Shown one piece after another: positions 1 to 26,584 of a stretch of DNA of 64,000 bases. Numbering within the stretch: the first letter of the stretch is position 1; the number at the start of each line of letters is the position of its first letter. The position numbers and the translations under genes were made by a program. Under the pieces are notes generated by a model, which saw only the letters and a list, made by a program, of their open reading frames with translations, searched no databases and had not been told where the DNA came from. The stretch comes from Spirochaetia bacterium (GTDB taxonomy: Bacteria > Bacillota > Desulfotomaculia > Desulfotomaculales > JAJYZD01): contig DATKUX010000146.1 in the NCBI GenBank assembly GCA_035530395.1, forward strand, positions 273 through 64,272. The letters are read 5' to 3'.

Positions 1-510
1 CTGCCGTACGTCGTCTTCCGTGAGGAGAAGCCCCCCCGCCAGGATGGGGATGTGCAGGCTTTCCCGCAGGTCGGTGACCACATAGGCGGGAACGGTGGCC
101 GGCAGTATTTCCACCGCGTCCGGCTTCACCGAAAGGGCCGTGCGAATGGAAGTTTTGAGGGCTTCCGAGTCCAGCATAAAAATTCTCTGCACGGTGACCA
201 GCTTTTCTTTCTGGCCCAGCCTCACCAGTTCCGGCCTGGTGGAGATCACCCCGTCCACACCCAGGCGGGCCAGGAAATTGATGCCGGCGTGATCGCGTCC
301 CACGCCTTCCATCAGATCAAGATGTACCAGGCTGTATCTGCCTGCTCCTTTGACTTTCCTGATCAGCGATGGTAAGGTGGCGATATTGCCATTCAAAAAG
401 AAGAACATTTTTATATGCTCATTCTTAAGCGCTTCGGCCAGGTCATCGTCCCTTCGGATAGCCGCTCCTATCTTCCAACAGGAAAACATCGGGTTGCCCA
501 CCGGATTCAT
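1..510 (-). CDS. glpP: Glycerol-3-phosphate-responsive antiterminator GlpP (3' end runs off the window)
   Basis: Not in the ORF track because it is open to the window edge. Minus-strand translation from ATG 510 gives MNPVGNPMFSCWKIGAAIRRDDDL...VTVQRIFMLDSEAL...KPDAVEILPA...LHIPILAGGLLLTEDDVRQ. These blocks match the G3P_antiterm/GlpP family (QRxFxxDS, PDxxEILP, IPILAGG). An in-frame TTG at 531 is an alternative start. Confidence 0.8.
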   Translation of the reverse strand, partial: MNPVGNPMFSCWKIGAAIRRDDDLAEALKNEHIKMFFFLNGNIATLPSLIRKVKGAGRYSLVHLDLMEGVGRDHAGINFLARLGVDGVISTRPELVRLGQKEKLVTVQRIFMLDSEALKTSIRTALSVKPDAVEILPATVPAYVVTDLRESLHIPILAGGLLLTEDDVRQ

Positions 511-535: not shown

Positions 536-1543
536 CTAGCCATTAGATATATAGGCCAATAAATCCACTATGCGGTTCGAGTATCCCCACTCGTTGTCAT
601 ACCACGCGACCAACTTTACCATGTTGTCCACCACCATGGTGGAAAGGCCGTCAACTATGCATGAATGGGGATTACCGTTAAAGTCCCTGGAGACCAGGGG
701 AAGCGGACAATATTCCATAATACGGGACAGCGGCCCCCGCGCTGCATCTTCCAGCGCCCGGTTCACCTCCCTCGCCGTGCAGGGCTTCGCCAGTACGGCA
801 ACCAAGTCGACGACCGAAACGTTGGCGGTCGGCACCCGCATGGCCAGACCGGTCAGTCTTCCCCGCAGGGAGGGAAGTACGCGGCCCACCGCCTGGGCCG
901 CTCCCGTGGTGGTGGGAATGATGGACATGGCGGCCGCCCGCGCCCTCCTCAGGTCCTCGTGGGGCAGGTCCAAAATACGCTGGTCGTTGGTGTAGGAGTG
1001 GACGGTGGTCATCATACCCCGGGCAATACCGAATTGGTCGTCGATCACCTTGGCCAGGGGAGCCAGACAGTTGGTGGTGCACGAAGCATTGGAGATGATC
1101 CGGTGGCTCTGCGGGTTGTAGTCGTCTTCGTTCACCCCCATAACGATGGTGATGTCCTCGCCTTTGGCCGGGGCGCTGATGACCACCCTGCCCGCCCCAG
1201 CCTCCAGATGTCGGGCCGCCCCGTCGCGGGAGGTGAAACGCCCGGTTGATTCCACCACCACGTCCACCCCCAGGCGGGCCCAGGGGAGCCGGGAAGGCTC
1301 GCGCTCCGCAAGGACGGCAATTGACCGCCCCCCCACGAGCATCCCGCTCTCCGAGGCTTCCACGTCGGGGGGGAAGATACCGTGCACGGAATCGTATTTT
1401 AAAAGGTGGGCCAGTGTCTGCGATGCATCAAGGTCGTTTACGGCCACCACTTCGATCTCCGGTCTGTCGAAAGCCGCCCGCAGTACCAGGCGGCCGATAC
1501 GGCCAAAGCCGTTTATACCTATCCTCAGCGTCAAGTCAACCAT
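536..1543 (-). CDS. gap: Type I glyceraldehyde-3-phosphate dehydrogenase
   Basis: 335 aa. NAD-binding INGFGRIGR and the catalytic SNASCTTNCLAP motif are present. Confidence 0.95.
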   Translation of the reverse strand: MVDLTLRIGINGFGRIGRLVLRAAFDRPEIEVVAVNDLDASQTLAHLLKYDSVHGIFPPDVEASESGMLVGGRSIAVLAEREPSRLPWARLGVDVVVESTGRFTSRDGAARHLEAGAGRVVISAPAKGEDITIVMGVNEDDYNPQSHRIISNASCTTNCLAPLAKVIDDQFGIARGMMTTVHSYTNDQRILDLPHEDLRRARAAAMSIIPTTTGAAQAVGRVLPSLRGRLTGLAMRVPTANVSVVDLVAVLAKPCTAREVNRALEDAARGPLSRIMEYCPLPLVSRDFNGNPHSCIVDGLSTMVVDNMVKLVAWYDNEWGYSNRIVDLLAYISNG

Positions 1544-1591
1544 CCTTTCACCCGAAAGTGTAACTGATAAGCATCCCGGTGTGCTTAACAG

Positions 1592-2785
1592 TCATACGGT
1601 ACCTCGAACGAGCAATTCCGCCAGCACGCAGGCCGGATGTTCCACCGTCAGGCCGGTTGCGGCCATGATTTGAATCTTGCAGGTCCCGCATTCCGTCAAC
1701 ACTTTATCCGGTCTGACCTCCTGTACCCTGTCAAAGAGTTTCCGGCCGACGGCCGTGGCCGTGGCATAGTTTTCGGCTTTGAAACCGTAAGAACCGGACA
1801 GGCCGCAGCAGCCTCCGTCCAAGTCCACCATCTCCAGGCCCGCAAGGCCGGAAAAGAGAGCCAGGGCGGCCGACCGGGTGCCGGTGGCACGCAGGTGACA
1901 GGGAGCGTGATAGGCAAAGCGGCCATGTATTGCCGGCAGACTGCCGGAATCCACTCCGGCGTCCCGCCCGATAAATTCAAAGAGGTCCCAGACATGCGCC
2001 GCCACGACGCCGGCCTCTTCCAGGCCAAAGAGTTCCGCATACTCCTTCCTCAGCATCAAGCCACAACTCGGACAGGTGGTAACGATATCCAGGCCCTTTT
2101 CGACCAGGGGGCCCAGGAGCGACAGGTTTTCCACCGCCTTTTCGCGGGCGGCCGCGAGAAAACCGTTGGTTACCTGCGGTAGGCCGCAGCAGTGGACATC
2201 GGGAAGCTCGACACGGTAGCCCAGGTGGTTCAGGATGCGGACCGCGGCGACTCCGATCCGGGGCTCGAAAAAGTGGGCATAGCAGCCGGGAAAGTACACC
2301 ACCCGCTTTTGCCCGGGCCTCTGCCGGGCCTTTCTAAAACTCGCCGGGCCTTGGCCATCGCCCCGGAAAAAGGCCACGGTCGGCGAAAGACCGAATAATC
2401 TCTGTCCGATCCGTGCCGGAAAACCATCCCCGGTAAAGTATCCGGCCATTTTATTAAGCGGGAAAGTGTTGATAAGTTTCCCCGTCAGTTCCACATTGGC
2501 GAGAAAAAAGTCCCGCAGACGAAAAGACCGGTTTTCCAAATAGGAGCCGCGCGCCAGGTTTATCATGCGGGAAATCCCCACGCCAAAGGGACAGGCCAGG
2601 TCGCAGTTTTTGCAGTTTGAGCACAGCTTCAGGGAAGCCGGATAATCTTCAGAACCCGTTCTTTTTATCCTTGCCAGGTCGGGACCCAGCCTCTTAGGCC
2701 CGTCGAACAAGACGTTCACAGCACCGACCGGGCATTGGGAAAGGCAAGTCGTACATTTAACACACTGGTCCAGGTCAATGGACAT
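1592..2785 (-). CDS. glpC: Anaerobic glycerol-3-phosphate dehydrogenase subunit C (Fe-S / CCG-domain protein)
   Basis: Two ferredoxin-type clusters (CVKCTTCLSQCP, CSNCKNCDLACP) plus Cys-rich CCG repeats. It lies immediately downstream of glpA/glpB. Confidence 0.8.
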   Translation of the reverse strand: MSIDLDQCVKCTTCLSQCPVGAVNVLFDGPKRLGPDLARIKRTGSEDYPASLKLCSNCKNCDLACPFGVGISRMINLARGSYLENRSFRLRDFFLANVELTGKLINTFPLNKMAGYFTGDGFPARIGQRLFGLSPTVAFFRGDGQGPASFRKARQRPGQKRVVYFPGCYAHFFEPRIGVAAVRILNHLGYRVELPDVHCCGLPQVTNGFLAAAREKAVENLSLLGPLVEKGLDIVTTCPSCGLMLRKEYAELFGLEEAGVVAAHVWDLFEFIGRDAGVDSGSLPAIHGRFAYHAPCHLRATGTRSAALALFSGLAGLEMVDLDGGCCGLSGSYGFKAENYATATAVGRKLFDRVQEVRPDKVLTECGTCKIQIMAATGLTVEHPACVLAELLVRGTV

Positions 2786-2798
2786 GCTTTTCGCCCCT

Positions 2799-4049
2799 CT
2801 AGGCTAAATTGCCGGCTTTGTAGCCGCTGGCGACAGCTATACCGGTGCCTGACTTCTCGACCGAAAAATCGTAGCCGGCAAGCTTGGAGCCGGTAATGAA
2901 AACATTTTTGCAGATTACCTCGCCGGACGGGCCGGTCGGGTTGAGGTTGTCATCCACTTCTATGCCGACCCGCATAAAGTCCTTGCCCTTTCCATCCAGA
3001 AAAGGACCGTCCACCCCTTCGATACCTTCCCGCGGCAAAGTTACCGGAAGACCCATGACCGGCTCCACGGGTTGCCCTCCCTGCCAGGAGTAGCCCGAAC
3101 TCACGAAGGAACCGGTGGCCAGGACGAAGGAGGAGGCAGCAAACTTGTGTTCCCGGCCCGAAATGCAGGCCGTAACCCCTGCACAACCGTTATTGGAAAA
3201 CCAAGCGCCGTTAACCCTTACATTGGCGGTAACAGTCACGCCCCGGGACATGACCCAGCGGCGCAGCGCAGCATATATTCTCAGCCCCGGCACCGAAGGG
3301 GGCAGGGTAGAGACCTCCATGAGCGGAACCCCGAGAGATTCTTTGACGGAAGAGAGCACTTTGGCGGCTGCTTCCAAGCCGAAAACGGCCGGAACCAGGA
3401 TCAGCGACCTACCGTCCGCCGCGTCCGCCACCCGGTTGAGAAAGACCTCCCGGCACTCGTCCCTCTCCAGGTACCCGGCCAGGGTAAACGAGTCCACATG
3501 CCGCGGGAGGCCCAAAGAAACGGTAAGGGTGCGGACGTCGCGAGCCGGGCGAGACCCGGCAATCCCTTGGGCTACCGCAAGCGGAAAGAAGTCCTTGTAT
3601 TCCGCCAGTCCTACCACCAGCACCTTGTCCGCGGCATCCCATCCGGGGACGTACTGGCTTTCGGGGGCCATGAACGCAGGCCTCGCCATCCCCAGCGGTG
3701 TGGGAACCATTATGTTGCGTCCAGCCGCGGGGTTGTAAACCAGTCCTTGCGACCCGCAGACGGTCCGGAAAAACTCCATGCTCTCCTTCAGAACGTCGAG
3801 CAACCTGCCCCAGGGGTGGTCTGGCTGACTCCGGAGGTACTCCCCGATTCCTTGAACGGGATCCAGGACCATCGGGCTTTTTTCCAGCGGAGCCCAACCC
3901 CAGACGTCAATGTGGCCGGGCAGGAAGGGAAATGAGCCGAGTCCGTCCGTGAGAAGAAGCACCCTTTTCCCCCGTTCGGCAGCTCTGGCGGCGGCCACGT
4001 AACCGGACAACCCCCCGCCGATCACGACCACATCATATTCAGCCTTCAT
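2799..4049 (-). CDS. glpB: Anaerobic glycerol-3-phosphate dehydrogenase subunit B
   Basis: FAD fold MKAEYDVVVIGGGLSGYVAA. ATG 4049 has GGAG 9 nt upstream and overlaps the glpA stop by 11 nt. The ORF-track extension to 4340 overlaps glpA and was discarded. Confidence 0.75.
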   Translation of the reverse strand: MKAEYDVVVIGGGLSGYVAAARAAERGKRVLLLTDGLGSFPFLPGHIDVWGWAPLEKSPMVLDPVQGIGEYLRSQPDHPWGRLLDVLKESMEFFRTVCGSQGLVYNPAAGRNIMVPTPLGMARPAFMAPESQYVPGWDAADKVLVVGLAEYKDFFPLAVAQGIAGSRPARDVRTLTVSLGLPRHVDSFTLAGYLERDECREVFLNRVADAADGRSLILVPAVFGLEAAAKVLSSVKESLGVPLMEVSTLPPSVPGLRIYAALRRWVMSRGVTVTANVRVNGAWFSNNGCAGVTACISGREHKFAASSFVLATGSFVSSGYSWQGGQPVEPVMGLPVTLPREGIEGVDGPFLDGKGKDFMRVGIEVDDNLNPTGPSGEVICKNVFITGSKLAGYDFSVEKSGTGIAVASGYKAGNLA

Positions 4050-5700
4050 TATTGAACGCTCCATATTGAATTCGCTCCAGGCAAAGTAGTGACGAATAGA
4101 CCCCCAGGGCCAGTTCAGCCTCGGCCAGTTGTTGACCGTGTAAAACAGCCTGCTGGCCGCGCCACCTCTTCTCCAGGAACTCGGCCAGAAAGGGTCCGAA
4201 TTTGTCAGGCCCGAGGAAACCCTCTTCAACCAGAAGCCCCGTGGTTCTAACACCACAGAAAACACCCTGGCAGGTGCCGGTCCCCATCCTGGTTCGCCGG
4301 CGAACTTCACCCAGGCTTTGCAGAGGAAGGTGGCGGGCACTCGCCATTACTTCGGCCATGCTTACCCCTTCGCACTCGCAAAGGATGTCTTTGCTAAGCG
4401 GGTTTCTGGCCAGTTCCGCTTTCACCTCGTCCAGGTTTGAGGCTGAACGGGTAACCGTTAATTCTCCGAAACCGGAAACAAATGTTTTCCTAACTCTCTC
4501 CGTTGCCATCTTGTCCGGCTCAACCAGTTTTTCCCGGGAGGTTGAACCAGGAACGTAACAACCTATTTTTTTAGTTACCAGGTCGGCTGTCTTTTCGCTC
4601 ATCAGACGATAGATGGTGAACTTCCCACCGGTAATGGTGACAAAGCCCTCCAGTCCATCTTCCCGGCCGTGATCTATCAATACGAAGTTGCGGGTGGCGG
4701 CCCGCCCTTTGGCGCCGGACGTCCCCGGCGAATAGAGGGGGCGCACTCCGGCATAGGCCCTCAAGGGCCGGTAATCCCCCAGATCCCGTACCATTTCCCC
4801 GCCCAGAGTCATCAGACGGTCCAGTTCCTCGCGGGACGGCCGGTAGTCGTCCGGCTTTACCACATCGACTGAAGTCGTGCCCAGGATCATGGTGGTGTTG
4901 TGCGGAACGAAGATATCGGCGTCACTCGGCGGCCTCAGTCTGTTGAGAACCTTGTTGGCAATCCTGTGGTTGAACACTATCATCGCCCCCCGGTTGGGCA
5001 GCATGGTGAGGTCAACCCCGGCCAGGTTGGCGATGCTTCCGGCAAAGGCACCGCCCGCATTGACGACGATCTCGCATTCCATCCGGGAACGCTCCCCGGT
5101 GAGAATATTTTCCACCTCCAACCCGGTAACCCGGGAACCCGTGCGGAAAATCTCCTTCACCGCGGTGTACGGGTACATCCCGGCCCCGTGACGGGTGGCC
5201 GACCGCGCATTGGAATAAACCAGGCGAAAGCCGTCAATGGCAGCGTCCGGCACTCTGAACGCCCTCTGGAGGGATTTCCTCAGGCACGGTTCCTCCCGCA
5301 GGACGGCATCCCGATCGGTCTCCACGGCCTCTATACCGGCCGCCTGGCACGCTTCGACCCATTTTTGCACATATCGGTCATCGTCCCCCTCCATCTGGAG
5401 GAAGTAGCCGCCGCAATCCTCCACACAGTGCCAGGCAACCTTTTTCAGAATGAGGTTTTCCGTAATGCATTCCCGGGCTGCGTCAAGATCGTTTACGGCA
5501 TAGCGGCCGCCGCTGTGCAGGAGTCCGTGAAAACGGGCGCTGGTTCCGCTGCACAGGTCCCCTTTGTCCACGAGGGCGACCTTTACCCCCCGCAGGGCGA
5601 GATCCCTCAGGACCCCGCTGCCGGTCGCCCCCCCGCCGATGACAACCACCTGGTATTTAAGCATTGCTCTGTGCCAATCTCCTTGATCGTTGTATTGCAT
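4039..5700 (-). CDS. glpA: Anaerobic glycerol-3-phosphate dehydrogenase subunit A
   Basis: FAD motif VVVIGGGATGSG and a C-terminal BFD-like Cys cluster (CECEGVS...GTCQGVFC). Alternative start at ATG 5664 (MLKYQVVVIGGG). Confidence 0.85.
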   Translation of the reverse strand: MQYNDQGDWHRAMLKYQVVVIGGGATGSGVLRDLALRGVKVALVDKGDLCSGTSARFHGLLHSGGRYAVNDLDAARECITENLILKKVAWHCVEDCGGYFLQMEGDDDRYVQKWVEACQAAGIEAVETDRDAVLREEPCLRKSLQRAFRVPDAAIDGFRLVYSNARSATRHGAGMYPYTAVKEIFRTGSRVTGLEVENILTGERSRMECEIVVNAGGAFAGSIANLAGVDLTMLPNRGAMIVFNHRIANKVLNRLRPPSDADIFVPHNTTMILGTTSVDVVKPDDYRPSREELDRLMTLGGEMVRDLGDYRPLRAYAGVRPLYSPGTSGAKGRAATRNFVLIDHGREDGLEGFVTITGGKFTIYRLMSEKTADLVTKKIGCYVPGSTSREKLVEPDKMATERVRKTFVSGFGELTVTRSASNLDEVKAELARNPLSKDILCECEGVSMAEVMASARHLPLQSLGEVRRRTRMGTGTCQGVFCGVRTTGLLVEEGFLGPDKFGPFLAEFLEKRWRGQQAVLHGQQLAEAELALGVYSSLLCLERIQYGAFNNEG

Positions 5701-5729: not shown

Positions 5730-7433
5730 CTAGCCTCCCTCTCGCACCACTTCGCGAACAATGTCATAGTTGGCGTCGGTCGCGGCTATGAACCCGTCGA
5801 TGGGCGAGTCAGCCATAGCACGCCGACCTTCTTCAAGTTGGGAAAGTTTCAGGAGGTTTCTTTTCAATTTATCTACCAGTCCCGGATTCAGGCCGGGCCG
5901 GCCCGCCAGGCAGTCCTTGGGGATTGGCTCCGTCTCGGCCAGGTAGACTAGGTCCGCCACCCTCAGTCCCCGCGCGGCGGCGTCGTCGATCGCTTCCGAA
6001 TAGGTGGCGCCCGCGGCCACCGTGCCGGCCAGCACCGCGTCGATGACCCGGCTGTGCGTTCCCAGGAAGACCGTTTCCCCCAGGTCCCGGTCGGGATCGA
6101 CCCCGGCCCGGCGCAACAAAATGCGGGGGTAGGCGTAACCGGAAGCCGACTTGGGATCCACGAAGGCCATTCGTTTGCCCTTGAGTGCGGCCAGGGAAGC
6201 CGCACCGGAGGCGCGTGTGACGATGTATCCCTTGTAGGAAGGCGACCCGTTGACGACCGGGGTAGCCAGAGGTATGACCCCGCCCCGCTCGCTGGCATTG
6301 ACGTAGGCCAGGGGCGAAAACCAACCCACGTCCACCACTCCGTCGATCAGGCTGTCGGCCAGGGCGTTGTAGTCCGCCGTTATTAGGACCGCCGGGCGGT
6401 AGCCCGTCACGGCGCAAAGCGCGGATATGACCGGAAGATACATTTTCCTTATGTTTTCCGGGCTCAGGGCCGGGTTTATACCAAATACGAGCTCTTTGGC
6501 ACCCCTGAAGGCCGCCGCCTGCTTCTGCAGGGAATAGACATTCTCCGAAAGGACGCCGGACAGGCTGGCCAAATAGGCATGAACCCTCTCCTGATTTCTT
6601 ACCAAACCGGTGATTTCCTGCATGCCCCCGTTGAGGTTGGAAAAAACATCCGCCAGATATTCCGTCGTTCCGGCCTGCTGGGCCATGGATCCGGAAAGTT
6701 CCTGGTTCAGTCCCGTGATTTCCTGGAATGCGGTGACGATATTGGCAAGAGCGCTTTTCACTTCGCCTGCGGTGCCTTGCACCGAGCCCAGCTCCCTGGC
6801 GCTCTTCTCCGCCTGGGACGCCACTTTGTTGATACCGGTGGTGATTTCCTCCGCCGTTTTGGCGATCATTTGGGAGGAATGCACGCTCCGGTCGGCCAGT
6901 TTGCGGACCTCCTGGGCCACCACCGAAAACCCCCGCCCGGCCAGTCCGGCCCGGGCCGACTCGATGGCTGCATTCAGGGCCAGGAGGTTGGTCTGGTTCG
7001 CGATGTCGACCACTTCGGCGACAAACCCCGTAATCTCGTGCGACATCTCTTTGAGCCGGGCAGCCGACGTGGCGAATTCCATCACGTCGGCAGCGATGGA
7101 ATGCAGAACCTTCTTGGCCTCGTCCATCAAATCCTCACTGCGTCCGGCATCCTCGAGCCGCGCCGAGCACAACGCGCTCACGCTTCGCGCGCTCTCCTCC
7201 AGGGAGCGGGCCACCGCTGTCAGTTCCTCCAGGCCGGCCGAGCCTGACATCAGTTCCTCCGCGTTTTTTTCCGTGTTTTTCACCAGGCTGGCAGCCAGTC
7301 CGGCATTTTCCCGCACCGTCCAGTTTATCTGGTGAATGTCAAATCCCAGTTTTTCGGCCAGGGGTAAAAGTTCGGGCTCTCCCCCCCCGCCCTGGCGGCC
7401 AGCCTTGGCCGTCGCCGTCCTGAACGAAAGCAT
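5730..7433 (-). CDS. Soluble methyl-accepting chemotaxis signalling domain fused to a C-terminal PhnD-like (phosphonate/phosphate-ester ABC substrate-binding) domain
   Basis: The N-terminal half has the MCP hairpin core ([37 protein letters not shown]). The C-terminal half is PhnD-like ([12 protein letters not shown]...GWFSPLAYV...[16 protein letters not shown]). I saw no hydrophobic TM segment. Confidence 0.75.
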
Positions 7434-7603: not shown

Positions 7604-9172
<1,569 letters not shown>

Positions 9173-9329: not shown

Positions 9330-10124
9330 TTAGGCTCCCTTACTGATGTTCTGCTCGATTTGCTGCGCGTTTTTTATCGCATTGGGCAGGAAAGGGGTAA
9401 CGCCGAAATCGTAGAATAAAGCGCCAAGAACGCCGCCAAGCAGTGGAGCGATGATTGGTGCGGTCCACCAGTAACTGCCCACAAAGGCGCCGGTGTCTCC
9501 CGCAAACAAAGCGGCGAAAAGACGCGGGCCCAAGTCACGGGCCGGGTTCATGGCGTAGCCGGAGGGACCGCCTAAAGACAAGCCGAGGGCCACGATGGCG
9601 ATACCGACCATGAAGGGCCACAGATTGGCGCCCGGGCCGTTATTGTTGACTGCATCCACAATTGCGGAAATGAAGATGAGGAGACAGAAGGTGGCCAATA
9701 CTTCGGTGAAAAAGGCTGTTCCTAACGAGATGCCCTGGCCGGCACCGGTGTAGAACACGTTCTTGTACCCCTGGGAGACAAAGCAGCCCTGGTAAGACAG
9801 ATAGACCAGGCCCGCGCCTACGAAGGCGCCCACTACCTGGGCGATCCAGTAGCCGATGGCCTTGCCGAAAGACATGTTTTTTCTCAGCACGTTGGCGAGG
9901 GTAACGGCCGGGTTGATGTGGGCACCGGTAACGCCGCCGGCCACATATACGGCCATGGCCACGGCAAATCCCCACCCCCAGGTGATGGTATCCCAGTTGT
10001 ACCCTCCAGCAGCCAGACGGGGGTGAAAGACTACGTTGGCCACCACCCCGTCGCCGAAGATGATCAGAAGGGCTGTGCCGATAAATTCGGCCCAGTACTC
10101 ACCAAACGCTGAAGACCTATTCAT
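9330..10124 (-). CDS. glpF: Glycerol uptake facilitator (MIP/aquaglyceroporin)
   Basis: 264 aa with two NPA boxes (HINPAVT, MNPARD). RBS AAAGGAG lies upstream of the ATG. Confidence 0.92.
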   Translation of the reverse strand: MNRSSAFGEYWAEFIGTALLIIFGDGVVANVVFHPRLAAGGYNWDTITWGWGFAVAMAVYVAGGVTGAHINPAVTLANVLRKNMSFGKAIGYWIAQVVGAFVGAGLVYLSYQGCFVSQGYKNVFYTGAGQGISLGTAFFTEVLATFCLLIFISAIVDAVNNNGPGANLWPFMVGIAIVALGLSLGGPSGYAMNPARDLGPRLFAALFAGDTGAFVGSYWWTAPIIAPLLGGVLGALFYDFGVTPFLPNAIKNAQQIEQNISKGA

Positions 10125-10370
10125 ATTTCACTTTCACTCCTTTGATTATGATCCTTTTACTTGTCATGCGCCATTGCCTTTCCTGGGAAATTGACCGGAT
10201 CGGTAACTTGCTTTTAGACTGCCGAAACCGCTGGCTGGTATCACCCCCCTTCCCCATATCGGCAACCGGTCCCGGCATCACTCCTTCCTCCATCATTTTC
10301 AGCATAAGGCCGGCACGCCTGCCCGACGTTTCAGCGAAATGCGTCCGCCCGCCAAGCAGGCTGGAAAATG

Positions 10371-10417
10371 AAAAAACCCGGCAATTGCTTCTCTTTTGGG
10401 AGAAGGCAATGACCGGG
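10371..10417 (-). terminator. Leader intrinsic terminator upstream of glpF
   Basis: Minus strand: CCCGGTCATTGCCTTCTC-CCAAAA-GAGAAGCAATTGCCGGG followed by TTTTTT. It sits about 245 nt upstream of the glpF start, inside the operon leader. Confidence 0.6.
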
Positions 10418-10640
10418 TTTTCAAATCTCTAAACCCTTTTATCAAGTTGTTGGGGACCTAGGACGAACCACATGGACTCTAACCCAGTTTTATGTTAGGC
10501 CACTCCGTCCCAGAAGGCAATAGCAATTATTCGACCAGCAGGAAACAGGGGACAAGCGGTATCTATTAGCAATTAAACGGCGGAGCCTGTCGCAGGGAAC
10601 CTTAAGGGGCGTCACTCCGCGGTTGACGCTCTTGCCCCCC
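10418..10640 (-). promoter_or_regulatory. glpFK leader RNA, candidate GlpP-dependent antitermination element
   Basis: It shares conserved blocks, in the same order and spacing, with the leader at 12157-12400. The main block is ACAACTTGATA-A-GGGTTTAGAGAT-TGAAAACC abutting the terminator. TTTCCTGCTGGT lies about 80 nt further 5'. Confidence 0.55.
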
Positions 10641-10661: not shown

Positions 10662-11186
10662 CTACCCGGCCATGGCGGCAATCAGGGACCGGCAAAAGTC
10701 CGGCAGGTCGTCGGGCTTGCGGGAGGTGATCAGGTTCCCGTCGCAAACCACCGGTTGGTCCACGTATGTTGCCCCGGCGTTTTGCACATCGTCTTTGATG
10801 GCCACGGTGCAGGTCACCGTCCTGCCCCGGAGCACCCCCGCCGAAATCAATACCCATGGGGCATGACAAATGGCACCGATAACTTTGCCGGAGGAAAAGG
10901 CGGCCCGCACGAATTCCAGGACGCTCTTGGAGCGGCGCAACTTGTCCGGAGCCCATCCGCCGGGGATAACCACACCGTCGTAGTCCACCACCCCGACTTG
11001 GTCCATGGTTTTGTCAGGGCGGCAGGAAAGCCCGTACTTCCCCCGGTATTCGACGGCACTGCCGGTGCCGACAATTTCAACCACGGCTCCGGCTTCCCGC
11101 AGCCGCAAGACCGGGTACCAAAGCTCCAGATCCTCAAAGCCTTCCTCCGCCAGCACCGCTACAGTCCTGCCCCTTAGCTCATCCAT
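10662..11186 (-). CDS. DJ-1/PfpI family protein (glutamine amidotransferase-like / deglycase)
   Basis: Nucleophile elbow AICHAPWVL. ATG 11186 has GGAGG with a 7-nt spacer. The ORF-track start at 11246 overlaps the upstream gene. Confidence 0.85.
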   Translation of the reverse strand: MDELRGRTVAVLAEEGFEDLELWYPVLRLREAGAVVEIVGTGSAVEYRGKYGLSCRPDKTMDQVGVVDYDGVVIPGGWAPDKLRRSKSVLEFVRAAFSSGKVIGAICHAPWVLISAGVLRGRTVTCTVAIKDDVQNAGATYVDQPVVCDGNLITSRKPDDLPDFCRSLIAAMAG

Positions 11187-11224: not shown

Positions 11225-12043
11225 CTACAGTCTTTTTTCGACCCAACTATGAATATCTCCAATAACCGTGCCTCTTTCCTTTTCATTGAGTATTTCATGA
11301 AAAAGACCCTCGTAAAACTTCAATTGCTTGTCCTGCGACGAAATATTTTCGTAGAGCCATTTTGCAGCCTCAGGAATAACTATCCGGTCGGCGCCGCCAT
11401 GAACAATAAGGCATGGACACGCATAATCCTTAATATTTCTTGCCAGCCATGCAGGCCCCCTGATACCTATCTCACCAAGCAGCTTTAATTCCGTTTCTTT
11501 AAGAACCAGAGGGTCTTTCTCGTAATCATTGACCACAGCCTCATCCCTACAAATTAGACGGGCCAGTGAATTTGGTGATTTTACCCCCCGTAAGGCGTCG
11601 AAATCCACCTTCTTGAGTTCGGCCATCGAAGGAAGTTCTATGACCAGCGCCCCCGAAAGCACCTGCCCGGCAAGCTTATGTCCGTACTTCACGCCGTAAC
11701 AGGCTGCGATAAGGCCCCCCATGCTGTGTCCCAATATAAACAGGGGCAGTCCGGGATTATCCTTCTTGGCCAGGTTTACTACAACATCGGCGTCATCGAC
11801 AAAACGGAGAAAGTTATCAATATAACCCCTGTCCCCACCGGATTTTCCATGTCCTCTATTGTCATACCTGTACACACCGTAACCAAATTGGTTAAACTTC
11901 TGGGCTACATATTCATATCGGCCAGAATGCTCACATAGGCCATGCACAAAAACAAACACTGCCTTTGCTTTTTCAGGTAAATCCTTCCTAATGAACAACT
12001 CCGTATCATCAGCTGCGCCAATTAGCCCTTCATATGTCGTCAT
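11225..12043 (-). CDS. Alpha/beta hydrolase, monoacylglycerol lipase / lysophospholipase family
   Basis: HG oxyanion motif FVHGLCEHSGRY and nucleophile GHSMGG. Alternative start at 12067. Confidence 0.8.
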   Translation of the reverse strand: MTTYEGLIGAADDTELFIRKDLPEKAKAVFVFVHGLCEHSGRYEYVAQKFNQFGYGVYRYDNRGHGKSGGDRGYIDNFLRFVDDADVVVNLAKKDNPGLPLFILGHSMGGLIAACYGVKYGHKLAGQVLSGALVIELPSMAELKKVDFDALRGVKSPNSLARLICRDEAVVNDYEKDPLVLKETELKLLGEIGIRGPAWLARNIKDYACPCLIVHGGADRIVIPEAAKWLYENISSQDKQLKFYEGLFHEILNEKERGTVIGDIHSWVEKRL

Positions 12044-12111: not shown

Positions 12112-12156
12112 AAAAAAACCACTCTTTGCTTCCCCTGAAGGGAGGCAACGAGCAGG
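12112..12156 (-). terminator. Leader intrinsic terminator upstream of the lipase/DJ-1 operon
   Basis: Minus strand: CCTGCTCGTTGCCTCCC-TTCAG-GGGAAGCAAAGAGTGG followed by TTTTTTT, about 70 nt upstream of the lipase start. Confidence 0.55.
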
Positions 12157-12400
12157 TTTTCAGATCTCTAAACCCGTCTATCAAGTTGTCGGTTTCCGGC
12201 GAAGCATGGGGTGCCATCCGTGCTGATTATAGAGCGCGGGGCTGCAAATAGTAAAGGGCAGTTTCTTTACCAGCAGGAAATAGAACGCAAACGGTAATAT
12301 TGGCCAGGCAAACGGAACAGCGGGTTTTGTGCCGACTGCAAACCGGCTTAGGAGAGCGGTCGGCAAACCGTAAAATTAACCTGTGGTCAATGTTCAACGT
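12157..12400 (-). promoter_or_regulatory. Lipase-operon leader RNA homologous to the glpFK leader
   Basis: Minus strand CCGACAACTTGATAGACGGGTTTAGAGATCTGAAAACC compares with glpF leader CCCCAACAACTTGATAAAAGGGTTTAGAGATTTGAAAACC. The shared TTTCCTGCTGGT block sits at similar spacing. Confidence 0.55.
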
Positions 12401-12544
12401 TGAACAATTCCCCGGAATTCCTGCCGCAAAACCAAGCCGCCGGTTGGGTCGGGGCCGAACCCATGAGTTCCTTGAAATCCGGCAAACAATCCCTTATAAT
12501 TAACACGGCGATTTTGCCTCTGATCAGGCTGGAGGGGTGTACCG

Positions 12545-14295: not shown

Positions 14296-14577
14296 ATGAA
14301 TATTAAAGAAGATATTCGGGCCATTTCTTATGTTAAAGCCAATGCGGCTGAGATTCTTACGCAAGTGAACGAGACCCATAGACCTGTCTATGTTACTCAA
14401 AATGGAGAGGCTAGGGCGGTTTTATTGGATACTGAATCGTTTGAAAAAATGATGAAGGCACTCGGTTTATTAAAACTATTGGCCCAAGGCGAGCGTGACA
14501 TAGTTGATGGAAAAGTCTTATCGCAGGAAGACTTTTTTCGCTTAAATCGCAATTTTGATAATAAAAACGATGTCTAA
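14296..14577 (+). CDS. Type II antitoxin, Phd/YefM family
   Basis: 93 aa. The N-terminus ISYVKANAAEILTQVNETHRPVYVTQNGEARAVLLDTESFEKM is typical of Phd/YefM. It overlaps the toxin start (ATGTCTAA). Confidence 0.85.
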   Translation: MNIKEDIRAISYVKANAAEILTQVNETHRPVYVTQNGEARAVLLDTESFEKMMKALGLLKLLAQGERDIVDGKVLSQEDFFRLNRNFDNKNDV

Positions 14578-19994: not shown

Positions 19995-21446
19995 CTAATA
20001 CCTCTTGCGTCTTGCGGCGGCAGGGATGCCCAGTTCATCCCGGTACTTGGCAATAGTCCGGCGGGAAACGTTCATCCCCTGCCGGCCGAACATCTCCACC
20101 AGTCGCTGGTCCTTGAAAGGGTCCTTGGAGTCCTCGGTCGCGATAAACTCCTGCAGGCGGCACTTGATGCTTTGTGCCGAAGTAAGCGTCCCGTCGTCAT
20201 TGTTTAGCCCGGTAGAAAAGAAATACTTCATCTCAAAAACGCCGAGCGGTGTCTGGATGTGCTTATTGGCCGTGGCCCGGCTGACCGTGGACTCGTGCAA
20301 GCCCAGATTCCCGGCTACTTTCCTCAGGTTCAAGGGCTTTAGGTACCGCACCCCGTAGTCGAGGAAATCACGCTGCAACTCCACCAAACATTCCGTTACC
20401 CGGTAGAGAGTAACCTTTCTCTGCTCAATGCTGCGAATCAACCAACTGGCCGCATTCAGCCTCGATTCCAGGTAGCGCCTGGTCGGGGGATCCTCACCGG
20501 ACCGGTTCAAAAGGGAGCGGTAAGCCCGGTTAATGATAAGGCGGGGTGTCGCCGCGTCGTTGATGATTATGACGTAGTCGCCGCCCACCTTTTCCAACAC
20601 CACGTCCGGCACGATGTACCTGGTATCCTCCGCGCCGGCAAAGTTACAGGCAGGTTTCGGATCGAGTCTCTTGATGAAATCGGCGGCCTTCTGGACCTCC
20701 TGAACCGTCACCGACAGACGGCGGGCTATCCGGTTGAGCTTGCCTCCGGCCAGGTCCTCCAGATGGCTTTCAATAATCCGGCGGACCAGGGAATCAATCG
20801 GGGCAAGCTGGTCCAACTGGTTCAACAGGCACTCCTTCAGGTCGCGGGCGCCGATCCCGGGGGGATCGAAACCCTGGAGAACCGAGAGGGCCTGCCCCAC
20901 TTGGGCTTCCTCCACGTGCAGACTGGCGCAGACCTCATCCACCGAGCAGCACAGGTAGCCATGCTCGTCCAGGTTGCCTATCAGATACGCGCCGATCTTT
21001 TTTACCGTGCCCCGGCACGGACTCAAATCCAGTTGAAACAGCAGGTGTTCAGCCAAGGTGGGTGCCCTGCTGACGAAGTTTTCATAGCCGGTATCCCGGG
21101 ACCGATCCTGGTTTATACGGGCCGGAGCATGGTCGGCATACTCCGCAAAGTATTCCTCCCAGTCCGTTTCCGCTTCCTTCTCGCGCTCGGCCGGTTCCTC
21201 AGCCGGCTCCTCAGCCGGCTCCTCGGCCGGTTCTTCCGGCTGTTCCCCGCTATCCTCGTCCCGTATTTCCAAAAACGGGTTTTCCAAAAGCTCCTGCTCC
21301 ACGTACTGGGACAGCTCCAAAGAGGAAAGTTGCAGCACGGTTATAGCCTGGCGCAACTCCGGGGTCATAACCAATTTTTGGGTCTGTTCCAGTTTCAGAC
21401 CGTAGCCGATCACTAGGCTCACCCCCTGACCGGAAAACCGGTGCAT
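19995..21446 (-). CDS. rpoN: RNA polymerase sigma-54 factor
   Basis: Region I LKLEQTQKLVMTPELRQAITVLQL, an acidic region II, and a C-terminal RpoN box ARRTIAKYR. The exact start is uncertain. Confidence 0.93.
   Translation of the reverse strand: MHRFSGQGVSLVIGYGLKLEQTQKLVMTPELRQAITVLQLSSLELSQYVEQELLENPFLEIRDEDSGEQPEEPAEEPAEEPAEEPAEREKEAETDWEEYFAEYADHAPARINQDRSRDTGYENFVSRAPTLAEHLLFQLDLSPCRGTVKKIGAYLIGNLDEHGYLCCSVDEVCASLHVEEAQVGQALSVLQGFDPPGIGARDLKECLLNQLDQLAPIDSLVRRIIESHLEDLAGGKLNRIARRLSVTVQEVQKAADFIKRLDPKPACNFAGAEDTRYIVPDVVLEKVGGDYVIIINDAATPRLIINRAYRSLLNRSGEDPPTRRYLESRLNAASWLIRSIEQRKVTLYRVTECLVELQRDFLDYGVRYLKPLNLRKVAGNLGLHESTVSRATANKHIQTPLGVFEMKYFFSTGLNNDDGTLTSAQSIKCRLQEFIATEDSKDPFKDQRLVEMFGRQGMNVSRRTIAKYRDELGIPAAARRKRY
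21190..21237 (-). repeat. 12-nt tandem repeat x4 inside rpoN region II (EEPA)4
   Basis: Plus strand GCCGGTTCCTCA GCCGGCTCCTCA GCCGGCTCCTCG GCCGGTTCTTCC encodes EEPAEEPAEEPAEEPA. Confidence 0.85.
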
Positions 21447-23338: not shown

Positions 23339-24747
23339 CGCCCCCCCGGCCCCGGGGCGGGCATGATCATTATCACAAACGGCCCGTAACCATTGGGGGG
23401 CAGGGTTGTCCGCAACACGTAGGTATGGCCGGGCACCGCGTAAGGCAGATCGAACACCACATGTCCCTGCCCCAGCGGCTGGAGGGAACGGGGCGACCGG
23501 TAATAGCCGGCATAGCCGGGATCCCGGAAGGACACCGTCCTTACGACACCGTCCAAATCGAAGACCAGATGCTGGTCATACATATCCGGCGAGGCCAGCG
23601 GCCCGCTGTAAAGGGCCGGTTGAACGGCTACCGCCGCCGGTCCCGACAACTGGAGCCGGAAGACGTACACAATCCCGTAGTTGCCGCTGTCCTGGGCCCG
23701 GACATGATCGTCAAGGCCGTTTGCGGAGACGTCATTGACGAACATATCCGGTTCATAACCTGGGGCGGTGTCCGGACCACTATCACGGGCGAAATACTGC
23801 TGGGCCACCTGCACAGCTACGGGCTTCACCCCCGGTCCCGGGTCATACCTGATGGTCATGGTCCGGTCGGCCCCGGCAAAAATCCCCCGCTGGTGGAACG
23901 GAGTCGGCGAGGGCGCGCCCGGGGCGTCATCGGCCGGAGATATCACGTCCGATTTGTCGGCCAGCCGGTAGAAAGAGGTAAAGTCGGTCCCGTAACGGGT
24001 GATGAGGACCTCCACCCCGATCCCGCCGTCTGATACGGGCGTCACCAACTGACCGGTCTTTTGGTCGCGTAGGACGAAGTCGAACAGGCCCATGGCCCAG
24101 GCTCCCGGGCCCACGTTTTCCTGGTAGAGGTAGGAACCGCCCGGAGCCAGGTCGGCCAACCGGTGTTCCTCGTCGCCGTCCCCGCTGGCAAACCACTTTT
24201 CCACCAGGGTGGTGCCTTCCCGGCCGCCGAAGTCCGGTCCGGGGCCGGACCCCCCGGCAGCCGGCGCATAGTCCACCGGCCCCGCCAGGGTGCCGTTTCT
24301 GTCCGTGGTGCGCATTGTCGCCATACGCGTCCAAAAAAGGGAGACCGCCCGGCCGGTGTGGTTGACGACAGCCACACCTATGGTCGCCGGATCGTCCACC
24401 CGGGGGTTGCGCGGATCGAAAAGCAGGTTTTTATGGCTGTAAAGGAGCCGGAAACGGCCCGACATGACGTTATCCATTTTACACAGTATGCCGGGCCGGT
24501 TGGGAAACTCGGGGCTGTTGCTCAGCACCAGGGGCTGGGTGGAAAGATCCAGGGCCCGGCCCCGGCTGAGTGATACCGCCTGATCGAACACGCTCGCCGC
24601 TACCGTGAACTGACCGGGATCGGCCGGCGCGGGTACAGCGGTTCCCCACCAGCCGGCCAAAACGAGTAAAATTGCAAGAAGTCGCGTCCAACGGTGCAAG
24701 AAGAAGTCACCAAAAGTTGCCGCGCGGAAGCCCCTGGATTTATCCAT
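23329..24747 (-). CDS. Secreted hypothetical protein (no recognisable domain)
   Basis: 472 aa from ATG 24747. Signal-like WTRLLAILLVLAGWWGTAVPAPA. It overlaps the deacetylase start by 10 nt. The start codon lies inside the IscB element end hairpin. Confidence 0.6.
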   Translation of the reverse strand: MDKSRGFRAATFGDFFLHRWTRLLAILLVLAGWWGTAVPAPADPGQFTVAASVFDQAVSLSRGRALDLSTQPLVLSNSPEFPNRPGILCKMDNVMSGRFRLLYSHKNLLFDPRNPRVDDPATIGVAVVNHTGRAVSLFWTRMATMRTTDRNGTLAGPVDYAPAAGGSGPGPDFGGREGTTLVEKWFASGDGDEEHRLADLAPGGSYLYQENVGPGAWAMGLFDFVLRDQKTGQLVTPVSDGGIGVEVLITRYGTDFTSFYRLADKSDVISPADDAPGAPSPTPFHQRGIFAGADRTMTIRYDPGPGVKPVAVQVAQQYFARDSGPDTAPGYEPDMFVNDVSANGLDDHVRAQDSGNYGIVYVFRLQLSGPAAVAVQPALYSGPLASPDMYDQHLVFDLDGVVRTVSFRDPGYAGYYRSPRSLQPLGQGHVVFDLPYAVPGHTYVLRTTLPPNGYGPFVIMIMPAPGPGGRWL

Positions 24748-26584
24748 GGGGAGGAATCGCGGCACCGGCGTCAGCCGGCATCCTTTCGTGTTGCCAACCA
24801 TTGGCCCTTTGCCGCAACCGGCAATACTTTACCGGGATCCCCTGGCAGATCCGTTTCCCCGTGCCTTCCTTGATGTCGAAGTAGCCACTCTTTCTGACAG
24901 CCACCCGGCCGCGCCAACTGCCTGTGTACTTCCCTTTCGGGATATCGGCCGCCACCAGGTCGCCGGTCTTGAAACCGCAGTGGGTCTTCTTCCGTTCTCG
25001 CCACCGATAGGGAAATCCGTACTTGTCGATCCCGGCCATCTGCCGGTTGCCCCGACCGGTGGCCGTGTAGACCTCGACAAACGACACAGCCACCGTTTCC
25101 GGAAGGTTTTTCCCCACGCACGCGGCATCATAGTAGTGGGTCTTCGGTAGTTTTAACACCTGGGTACGATTGTACTTCGTCAGGCCACCGCTCCCGGTTT
25201 CCAGGGGCAACGCGAGAGCCGTGAGCCGTCGATAGAGCCCCCACCTGGTCGCGTTCATCATGGCCGCATCCTTCAGGGGCTGTTTCAACTCTTGGAGCGC
25301 CTTTGGCAGATTATCTGTCCGAATCTGGTCCAGGGCCTTGCCGGACGCCCGCAACTGTTCCAGCCACTCCTCCGGCTGCAGGTTGCCCTTATCATCATTG
25401 CACTTCTTGCAGGCGATGACCAAATTCGAGACCCGGTCCGTGCCCTTCGGCCCGTGGTCCGGGTTCCTTGGAACCACGTGCTCCACGTTCAGAACAGGGT
25501 CTCCGGAGGCACCCCGACAGTAAGCGCATAGGCGGGCAAATTTCTGCAGCAGGTACTCCCGCACCTCGTACCCGGCCAAGGTACCCTGCTGGTACTCGAC
25601 GCCGGAGATGTCCGGATTCTCCATCAGTTGGGTATCGAACCGGATCAACTCCATCGCGATCGCGGTGATGGGCAGGAGCTGGCGCATCTTACACACCCAG
25701 GACAAAGTCTCCTCCACCCGGGCCCGGAGCGAAGGCGGCAGCCACGCCTCCCGGAGACCGTTGTCAACGAACCGCCCGGCCTCATGGCACGGACGGCAGT
25801 ACCGGCTGCCGTGTTTCGCGTTCCGGCCACAGGCGGCACACTTCTCCGGGTGCCGATTGTTGAACCGGGGTTCCCGATACCGGGTCTTCCGGTTCCTGCG
25901 GCTCCGGCGTTGCTCCCGCCGGGCGTCCAGGTTTCCCTTGATGTCCGTCCGGTGTCGACATTCATAGCAGCCTATGGTTACTTTACCGTCCCGGACCACC
26001 GCACCCCCGGTTACTTTCGACCCGGGATCCAGCTTCATGTCGAGGGGTTGCAGAACACTGTCCTCAACCAAGCGGTCTTTCAGTCTGATCGTGAACGGAG
26101 CCATCTTGTGGACCACCGCCCGGCCGTGCTCCAAAAGTAGCCGGGCCCGTTTCTCGCTACATGGCATTAATGGTTTTTTGCGCTTGTCGAGTACATAAAC
26201 CACATGATTTCATCCTTTCTCTCCTTTCGGAGATCCCTTACGGGACCGGTTCCGCGCCGGGCTCGACACCCGGCATCTCTCCTCGCCGATGTTATCCCGG
26301 CTTTGCGCCGGCGGCACTGCTCGCATATAGTACGGTGATTACTGTGAATATGCTGTGTCCATTGTTACATCCACCCCTGCTCGCTGTTTAACCGCCGACG
26401 GCAGCTCCTGGAACTGGAGAAGCATCCCAGGGTGCCGGGACCGGAATAACGTAGTCTGCTCGCTCGGAGATCCCGGCAGACTTGGGCTGGTCATAGCGCC
26501 CTTGCGGGCTTTCTCGCCTAAATCCGGAGACTGTCGGAGGAGGACCTCCTCAAGCCCCCGGCTTTAGCCGTGGGGTCTATGACC
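24708..26584 (-). mobile_element. Non-autonomous IS200/IS605-type element carrying iscB + omega-RNA (copy 1)
   Basis: The ends were defined by comparison with copy 2. Similarity starts at CACCAAA (24708) and stops after ...GTGGGGTnnnTGAC (26583). Subterminal hairpins lie at 24731-24751 and 26556-26575. No tnpA. Confidence 0.7.
24740..26203 (-). CDS. iscB: IscB RNA-guided endonuclease (PLMP + split RuvC + bridge helix + HNH)
   Basis: 487 aa. Motifs: KKPLMPC (PLMP); LDPGSKVTG (RuvC-I); RREQRRSRRNRKTRYREPRFNNR (Arg-rich helix); IAMELIRFD (RuvC-II); CAYC...NVEHVVP...SNLVIACKKCNDDKGN (HNH); KTHYYDAA (RuvC-III). GTG start with an AGGAGAGAAAGGA RBS. Confidence 0.9.
   Translation of the reverse strand: MVYVLDKRKKPLMPCSEKRARLLLEHGRAVVHKMAPFTIRLKDRLVEDSVLQPLDMKLDPGSKVTGGAVVRDGKVTIGCYECRHRTDIKGNLDARREQRRSRRNRKTRYREPRFNNRHPEKCAACGRNAKHGSRYCRPCHEAGRFVDNGLREAWLPPSLRARVEETLSWVCKMRQLLPITAIAMELIRFDTQLMENPDISGVEYQQGTLAGYEVREYLLQKFARLCAYCRGASGDPVLNVEHVVPRNPDHGPKGTDRVSNLVIACKKCNDDKGNLQPEEWLEQLRASGKALDQIRTDNLPKALQELKQPLKDAAMMNATRWGLYRRLTALALPLETGSGGLTKYNRTQVLKLPKTHYYDAACVGKNLPETVAVSFVEVYTATGRGNRQMAGIDKYGFPYRWRERKKTHCGFKTGDLVAADIPKGKYTGSWRGRVAVRKSGYFDIKEGTGKRICQGIPVKYCRLRQRANGWQHERMPADAGAAIPPHG

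Follow-up and report, generated by a model that had tools for sequence, protein, structure and literature searches.

Probable GlpP-type attenuator leaders precede both glpF and a monoglyceride-lipase-like/DJ-1 operon in a 64-kb metagenomic contig stretch

In a 64-kb stretch of contig DATKUX010000146.1 (the whole stretch of DNA that was analysed, hereafter the window), two neighbouring operons begin with closely similar leaders, in which a conserved block of about 37 nt runs directly into an intrinsic terminator. One leader precedes glpF, the first gene of a glycerol-catabolic operon that ends with the gene for the glycerol-3-phosphate (G3P)-responsive antiterminator GlpP, and the other precedes a gene for a monoglyceride-lipase-like hydrolase (hereafter the lipase) that is followed by a DJ-1/PfpI-family gene. 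All features of the locus lie on the minus strand. We consider it probable that both leaders are GlpP-dependent transcription attenuators of the type described for the glp genes of Bacillus subtilis. A preliminary description of this DNA, made from the letters alone, had proposed the same GlpP-type leader before glpF and before the lipase/DJ-1 genes, and with it a wider GlpP regulon; this proposal is supported by the presence of glpP in the operon, by rank scans against known GlpP-linked leaders and by conservation of the element in relatives.

The lipase leader carries the 35-nt core of the block, ACAACTTGATAGACGGGTTTAGAGATCTGAAAACC, at 12189..12155, and the glpF leader carries its second copy at 10450..10416 with 3 mismatches, the number given in the preliminary description; 100 dinucleotide-preserving shuffles yielded 0 matches to this core. 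With a copy of the core and a terminator in each, the region upstream of the lipase gene indeed repeats the layout of the glpF leader, as first described. The full pre-terminator block of the lipase leader, CCGACAACTTGATAGACGGGTTTAGAGATCTGAAAACC (12155..12192), is the proposed GlpP-binding site, and its counterpart in the glpF leader is CCAACAACTTGATAAAAGGGTTTAGAGATTTGAAAACC (10416..10453). Between the two paralogous leaders, identity is 89% in the block, 62% in the terminator, 56% in the promoter and upstream blocks, 39% in the spacer from the -10 element to the block and 34-37% in the flanks, showing that strong conservation is confined to the block, most plainly when it is set against the 5' spacer. 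A more extensive search for the block had been suggested in the preliminary description. A covariance model was built from seven copies, namely the two window leaders and those of the lipase gene of L007, glpF and DJ-1 of L011, glpF of L013 and glpF of L018, which belong to relatives described below. It found exactly two matches in the window (94 and 90 bits), and further copies are those in the relatives. The consensus of the seven copies reads AcAAyTTGATArAnrGGTTTAGAGnnnnGAAAACCyGsT, followed by the terminator.

In both window leaders, the block leads straight into a long imperfect hairpin and then a U run, and the 5' strand of the terminator opens with the AAAACC that closes the block. Folding placed the terminator of the lipase leader at 12112..12160, with its stem beginning at the AAAACC of the block and with the U7 run that had been described after it at 12118..12112, and the terminator of the glpF leader at 10371..10421, with a U6 run at 10376..10371. 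The earlier statement that the two stems differ in sequence holds in part, since a TTGCC...GCAA core is common to both. RNAalifold analysis of the seven copies identified 7 terminator base pairs with compensatory changes, and because of this covariation the leader terminator is judged, at the level of sequence, to be real. Neither leader terminator was reported by a simple terminator scanner, probably owing to the mismatches and bulges in the stems. Both leaders thus carry an intrinsic terminator between the promoter, whose position is predicted, and the first gene.

For the lipase operon, a sigma-70-type promoter, TTTACT-18-TATAAT, was predicted at 12226..12255, with TTTACC-18-TATAAT as its equivalent in L007. 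The predicted glpF promoter, TTGCCT-17-TAACAT (10492..10520), is below the scanner threshold and was placed by alignment to the lipase promoter; its equivalents are TTGCAT-17-TAAGAT in L011 and TTGCCT-17-TAATAT in L018. Farther upstream, TTTCCTGCTGGT is present at 12280..12269, 80 nt 5' of the lipase block, and at 10545..10534, 84 nt 5' of the glpF block, close to the distance of about 75-80 nt first described, and in both window copies it ends 13 nt before the predicted -35 element, as read from the sequence. Beyond it, an octamer CCGYTTGN is repeated with a spacing of 21 nt, equal to two helical turns, starting at 12315 and 12294 in the lipase leader and at 10580 and 10559 in the glpF leader. 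On the lipase side both octamers are CCGTTTGC (12315..12308 and 12294..12287), so that the upstream blocks together span 12269..12315; on the glpF side (10580-10552) they are CCGTTTAA and CCGCTTGT. The block CCGTTT...TACCGnTTG of the preliminary description is real, but is better described as this octamer repeat.

Of the seven copies, all except one or two have a predicted sigma-70-like promoter that separates the upstream blocks from the 37-nt block, and the distance from the -10 element to the block is not conserved (21 to 49 nt). Because the predicted promoter lies between them, the upstream blocks are probably promoter-upstream DNA elements and not leader RNA. Judging from the promoter prediction, the regulatory RNA would be a short leader in which the block and then the terminator follow a variable 5' spacer. 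The layout of about 200 nt that had been described as a leader holds for the block and terminator, whereas its upstream part, 5' of the predicted promoter, is probably not RNA. As a separate observation, the octamer repeats together with TTTCCTGCTGGT look like a shared site of a DNA-level regulator. Two other candidate signals were rejected by inspection: a sigma-54 promoter, TGGCAC...TGCT, whose spacing is 2 nt short and whose sequence is not in the glpF copy, and a cre/CcpA site at TACCGnTTG, in which key consensus positions are mismatched.

Relatives of the locus were reached by homologue look-up of the lipase, GlpF and GlpP proteins. L007, an SRA assembly with a lipase 88% identical to that of the window, retains the whole lipase leader, block and terminator included. 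There the lipase gene is followed not by DJ-1 but by a gene for a sigma-54 activator that contains HPr and PAS domains, and then by dhaK/dhaL (Dak1 and Dak2; 1231-5373), an order that ties the lipase to glycerol metabolism through its dihydroxyacetone branch. L011, from the same sample as L007 and with a GlpF 94% identical, has one copy of the element before glpF and a separate copy before DJ-1, while L013 (GlpF 72% identical) and L018 have one copy each before glpF. glpP stands at the end of the glp operon in L012/L013 and is also present on the L011 contig. The block was not found with a glpF relative of 69% identity (L014-L016), which lies beside a sigma-54 activator with no glpP nearby, and lipase homologues of 63-64% identity (L008 and L010) have no such leader. 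A scan of metagenome contigs with the pattern GATANANNGGTTTAGAGNNNNGAAAAC returned two relatives only, and a scan of a genome collection with GGGTTTAGAGATNTGAAAAC, a pattern that was too strict, gave 5 chance matches, from Bacteroidota, a cyanobacterium and Pirellula, all of which lack the extended block. By sequence comparison, the element is kept in related metagenomic organisms before the lipase gene, before glpF and, separately, before DJ-1.

These copies also bear on whether the two operons might be co-regulated mainly at initiation, by a DNA-binding regulator acting on the upstream blocks, with the block and terminator being constitutive or secondary; such control could also be added to that by GlpP. 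The upstream blocks are common to both window promoters with identical spacing, lie 5' of the predicted promoters and are partly kept in L007 and L011. However, they are less conserved than the RNA block (56% versus 89%), the distal repeat is degraded in L007, and L013 and L018 keep only a GACCGTTCG remnant. Moreover, no candidate regulator gene adjoins them, and regulation at initiation leaves unexplained why the block abuts a terminator in every copy. We therefore regard it as an unlikely main mode of control.

The window encodes a cognate GlpP. The frame at 1..510 (510..1 in reading direction), cut by the left window edge after 170 visible aa, was located by tblastn with the GlpP fragment of a related contig (match 489..292), and it matches PF04309 (G3P_antiterm) with E=6.5e-47 and the crystal structures 3kts (8e-25) and 1vkf. 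Its public record is 188 aa long and is named glycerol-3-phosphate responsive antiterminator. glpP is the last gene of the operon under the glpF leader, glpF-glpK-mcp-glpABC-gap-glpP, and one copy of the element, 5' of glpF-glpK-glpABC, is thus associated with genes of glycerol and G3P catabolism.

In B. subtilis, the 5' untranslated region (5'UTR) of glpD consists of ACAAGTTAATAAGAACGGTCCTGAGATGAGGAGAGACC followed by a terminator, and it gives GlpP- and glycerol-dependent control to heterologous (hybrid) promoters (PMC9604022, Table S4). The B. subtilis GlpP and leader are also reported to function together in E. coli. The block in the window occupies the position of this GlpP site. The same layout was found in glpP-linked leaders of Bacillus sp. 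N5-665, Cytobacillus spongiae, Paenibacillus cellulosilyticus and Acetoanaerobium noterae, which were taken from PLSDB records that are really chromosomes. Moreover, glpP-glpF intergenic leaders with terminators are present in Desulfofundulus kuznetsovii (ATAACTTGATATTGGTAGGAGTCGAGGAGAAAACCCC) and Desulforamulus reducens (ACAATTTGATATTTGGTTGGAGTTTAGGAGAATAACCC), and in their sequence these two bridge the Bacilli form and the window form.

Every 41-mer of either window strand, about 128,000 in total, was then ranked by global alignment to these leaders. Against seven Bacilli leaders, the two blocks scored 30.1 and 29.7 and took ranks 1 and 2 (next best 28.9; background 14.5 ± 3.2); against three Desulfotomaculia leaders they scored 32.7 and 32.3, again ranks 1 and 2 (next best 31.7). 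The glpF block came first and the lipase block second in both scans, and z-scores of the resemblance against shuffles were 3-4.8. Both rank scans thus show a pre-terminator sequence like that of known GlpP leaders, while the E-values of profile and covariance searches, given below, are not significant. Homology to the B. subtilis site, as a matter of sequence, is well supported by rank and by the intermediate forms, not by a significant profile E-value.

The alignments exclude the more distant GlpP loci of Enterococcus gilvus, C. butyricum and Bacillus sp. F19, in which the motifs are different or partial. Near distant GlpP homologues (27-30% identity), the flanking motifs differ, such as CTGACAG...GAAAsGAGGG, or are partial, such as GGAGTTAATGGAGAAAACC; these loci are L026 4600-4710 and 6480-6550 (E. 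gilvus), L023 6690-6800 and L024 6590-6640. RNA specificity seems to differ between GlpP subfamilies.

A cis-acting riboswitch, or another RNA-binding factor, could in principle sense glycerol, G3P or a related metabolite without GlpP, the nearby glpP being coincidental or acting elsewhere. A conserved RNA element does adjoin the terminator, the genes that follow are related in metabolism, the predicted structure includes a small 5' hairpin (AACUUG/CGGGUU), and a search of the window against Rfam found no family at the locus at the gathering threshold or at E≤10, which from sequence would leave room for an undescribed class. (A CopA-like match on the glpF terminator, 26 bits versus a threshold of 60 and E=0.09, was set aside as a chance match to the hairpin.) The GlpP-linked leaders of Bacilli and Desulfofundulus have no Rfam match either. 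However, the conserved part is only about 37 nt long behind a 5' spacer that varies from 21 to 49 nt, no multi-helix aptamer with covarying helices was found, covariation being in the terminator only, and the candidate alternative hairpin has a free energy of about 0 kcal/mol. In the 5' hairpin, the seven copies have only wobble-compatible changes. In many Firmicutes, moreover, leaders that adjoin glpP match the motif, and so does the functionally characterised glpD leader of B. subtilis. A riboswitch is quite improbable because of this short conserved length, the lack of a structured aptamer and the way in which the motif tracks glpP across Firmicutes.

The proposed GlpP-dependent attenuation agrees with the B. 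subtilis glpD, glpFK and glpTQ system in several respects: a promoter, a short conserved sequence and an intrinsic terminator lie in the 5'UTR of glycerol-catabolic genes, a GlpP homologue (PF04309) is encoded at the locus, and the B. subtilis series ACAAGTTAATA, GG, rGAGA and GAGAG-terminator is collinear with ACAACTTGATA, GGG, AGAG and GAAAACC-terminator in the window. In addition, the B. subtilis regulon holds GlpQ, which frees the glycerol moiety from the head groups of lipids (PMC9604022). The systems differ in that the box in the window deviates at 2 of 11 positions, one AGAG replaces the two GAGA elements of Bacilli leaders, and the predicted spacer from the transcription start to the box is about 15-40 nt longer, the Bacilli box beginning 4-5 nt after the -10 element. 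Furthermore, glpP is the last gene of the regulated operon here and a separate upstream gene in B. subtilis, and the window adds the monoglyceride-lipase-like hydrolase and the DJ-1/PfpI protein as targets.

The glp leaders of cultured Desulfotomaculia share with those of the window the box AYAAYTTGATA, the D. reducens box being identical to the L013/L018 form, and an A-rich run (GAAAACC or GAATAACC) that enters the terminator; they also have a long 5' spacer, and in D. reducens the box lies 33-34 nt after TATAAT. Unlike the window leaders, they keep two GGAG elements, as in Bacilli, and they stand before glpF and glpA; the ±10 kb around glpP showed neither a lipase gene nor DJ-1. In Desulforamulus ruminis (L027 10690-10790), gap lies directly downstream of glpP and has its own GlpP-like leader, with TATAAT, a CAGGAGTATTGGAGCGGG motif and a terminator. 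Glyceraldehyde-3-phosphate dehydrogenase (GAPDH) thus seems to be a recurrent GlpP target in Desulfotomaculia, which fits the presence of gap in the glp operon of the window.

An RNA-binding protein that is activated by a ligand or signal and binds a short element shared in part with a terminator's 5' strand is also the principle of the BglG/SacY/LicT proteins with their ribonucleic antiterminator (RAT) and of HutP at hut. The RAT is an imperfect hairpin of roughly 29 nt. The proteins of these systems (CAT-PRD proteins and HutP) are unrelated to GlpP, and neither the RAT nor the hut RNA pattern is present in the window leaders.

On the model that we propose, transcription would begin at the predicted sigma-70-type promoter, 21-49 nt 5' of the block, and the nascent RNA would bear ACAAYTTGATA-N4-GGTTTAGAG-N4-GAAAACC, an arrangement that is directly observed and whose 3' end is the 5' strand of the terminator. 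With no inducer, the terminator would form and transcription would halt before the lipase gene or glpF. When G3P accumulates, GlpP would, by analogy, bind the block and keep AAAACC(YG) from the 3' strand of the terminator, possibly by stabilising a weak hairpin, (C)GGGUUU/AAAACC(YG), around an AGAGnnnnGA loop, so that polymerase would read through. This candidate antiterminator pairing was seen in minimum-free-energy folds of the nascent RNA. The hairpin alone has +0.7 to -1.8 kcal/mol, compared with -34 to -40 kcal/mol for the full leader fold, and is so weak that a protein would be needed to stabilise it.

It is hardest to credit that the lipase leader is a recent and functionally irrelevant duplicate of the glpF module with the lipase expressed without regard to glycerol. 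The leaders are clearly paralogous, down to parts of the terminator stem and the upstream DNA, but block and terminator have stayed intact in L007, where lipase identity is no more than 88%, and DJ-1 has a third copy in that lineage (L011). Divergence has been selective, with the block retained, changes free to occur in the spacer and at the top of the hairpin, and pairs compensated. Moreover, a strong terminator left intact between promoter and gene would keep the operon silent unless it were relieved.

Several points weigh against GlpP-dependent attenuation and temper our confidence in it. The margins of the rank scans over the next-best position are small, and in underpowered scans of the window with single leaders, the window leaders came 3rd-4th or were not found. 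A profile hidden Markov model (HMM) built from Bacilli leaders only did not report the window leaders in an nhmmer search, and an HMM of the 12-member family reported them at E = 7-12; in the opposite direction, the covariance model of the lineage matched the Cytobacillus glpF leader at E=0.23 and the D. kuznetsovii leader at E≈10. The promoters and transcription starts are predictions. The two window leaders are paralogues and so count as one evolutionary observation, and their partly similar terminators reflect common descent as well as constraint. In the alignment A4, the column pair 20/41 is found as G-C, A-U and G-U, and the rest of the P2 antiterminator helix is invariant in the lineage; antiterminator-like short helices in other families were no better than those in shuffles. 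The antiterminator helix is therefore treated as a hypothesis. To our knowledge, the RNA site of GlpP is poorly defined even in B. subtilis, and the GlpP dependence of the RNAs described here is proposed from sequence and analogy.

The lipase gene (11225..12043) encodes an alpha/beta-hydrolase of 272 aa that matches Pfam Hydrolase_4 with E=8e-69, and its best solved structures are monoglyceride lipases, Rv0183 of M. tuberculosis (6eic; 6.5e-41) and human MGLL (3e-36). The DJ-1/PfpI/YhbO-family gene (10662..11186; 174 aa; Pfam DJ-1_PfpI, E=3.6e-55), whose product is above the cut-off of NCBIfam TIGR01382, starts 38 nt past the lipase stop codon with no terminator between them, and we infer that the two genes are co-transcribed. 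In the glp operon, glpF (9330..10124) encodes a glycerol facilitator of the MIP family and is followed by glpK for glycerol kinase (7604..9151 as limits of the open reading frame, ORF), the true start of which is probably internal to the ORF, relatives being 500 aa long. Downstream are a gene in which a chemoreceptor-signalling domain is fused to a PhnD-like binding domain (5730-7433), glpA-like (4039-5700), glpB-like (ORF 2799-4340) and glpC-like (1592-2785) genes, and gap, for GAPDH (536..1543). The order from the fusion gene to the glpC-like gene is the same in L011 and in L012/L013.

The fusion protein has an N-terminal MCP signalling domain and a C-terminal PhnD-like periplasmic-binding domain, occurs at the same place in L011 (8091-9800) and L012 (4802-6490), and may act in chemoreception of a phosphorylated ligand, for example G3P. 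About 245 nt (10124-10370) separate the glpF terminator from the start codon, and the islands that they have in common with L011 5375-5578 include GTGCCGG and GGCAATGGCGCAT; an RNA thermometer has been described at the corresponding place in the B. subtilis glpF leader (PMC10573289).

On the far side of the lipase promoter, between it and the divergent plsY promoter, is a perfect palindrome, TGTTCAACGTTGAACA (core 12391-12406), which in L007 (3-26) grows to a 24-nt perfect palindrome, GAATTGTTCAACGTTGAACAATTC. The palindrome may resemble the clostridial Rex operator TTGTTAAnnnnTTAACAA, with one change per half-site. Elsewhere in the window are a gene for a Phd/YefM-type antitoxin (14296-14577, plus strand) downstream of plsY and ApbA-like genes, rpoN (19995-21446), and a HEARO RNA (RF02033; 26272-26583, minus strand; 111.9 bits versus a gathering score of 83) with an ORF of 487 aa directly 3' of it (24740-26203, minus strand). 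The contig, assembled from a metagenome, bears the public label Spirochaetia. Among named organisms, Desulforamulus and Desulfofundulus have the closest homologues of its GlpP (50-55% identity) and Clostridium has those of its lipase (about 60% identity), and the label may be wrong.

GlpP antitermination has been known since the 1990s, so that the mechanism is not new; what is new is the target operon and the copying of a promoter-leader cassette before lipase and DJ-1 genes in this lineage. We found no paper that links GlpP to a lipase, and a regulon study explicitly omitted GlpP from its comparative analysis (PMC3750489). The RNA target of GlpP is without a curated model, and the locus yields a compact leader alignment from Bacilli to Desulfotomaculia, roughly 20 leaders having been collected, that could seed an RNA family model. 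We lean, by a modest degree, towards the broader view that ACAAsTTrATA...GAGA...terminator is a widespread family of GlpP-binding leaders with no Rfam entry, and that in this Desulfotomaculia-like lineage cassette copying has expanded the regulon beyond glycerol uptake and oxidation to a module for glycerolipid scavenging and dihydroxyacetone phosphate (DHAP) stress, comprising the lipase, DJ-1/PfpI, GAPDH and the chemoreceptor. The finding is incremental and extends a known system modestly, and it is of use both in annotation and in glycerol-inducible expression tools like those made from the B. subtilis glpD leader.

For the organism itself, the regulon would join the release of glycerol by the lipase, its uptake and phosphorylation by GlpF and GlpK, its conversion to DHAP by GlpABC, the entry into glycolysis through Gap, and the DJ-1/PfpI protein, as far as the link from function to regulon can be inferred. 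A monoglyceride-lipase-like enzyme would free glycerol, from which GlpF and GlpK would make the inducer G3P, forming a feed-forward loop. Proteins of the DJ-1/PfpI family include glyoxalase III and deglycase enzymes, and the one encoded here could counter methylglyoxal that arises from excess DHAP. A physiological link between lipolysis, glycerol catabolism and protection by DJ-1/PfpI against methylglyoxal or glycation is thus plausible, and the bacterium probably co-regulates the release of glycerol from lipids with its consumption.

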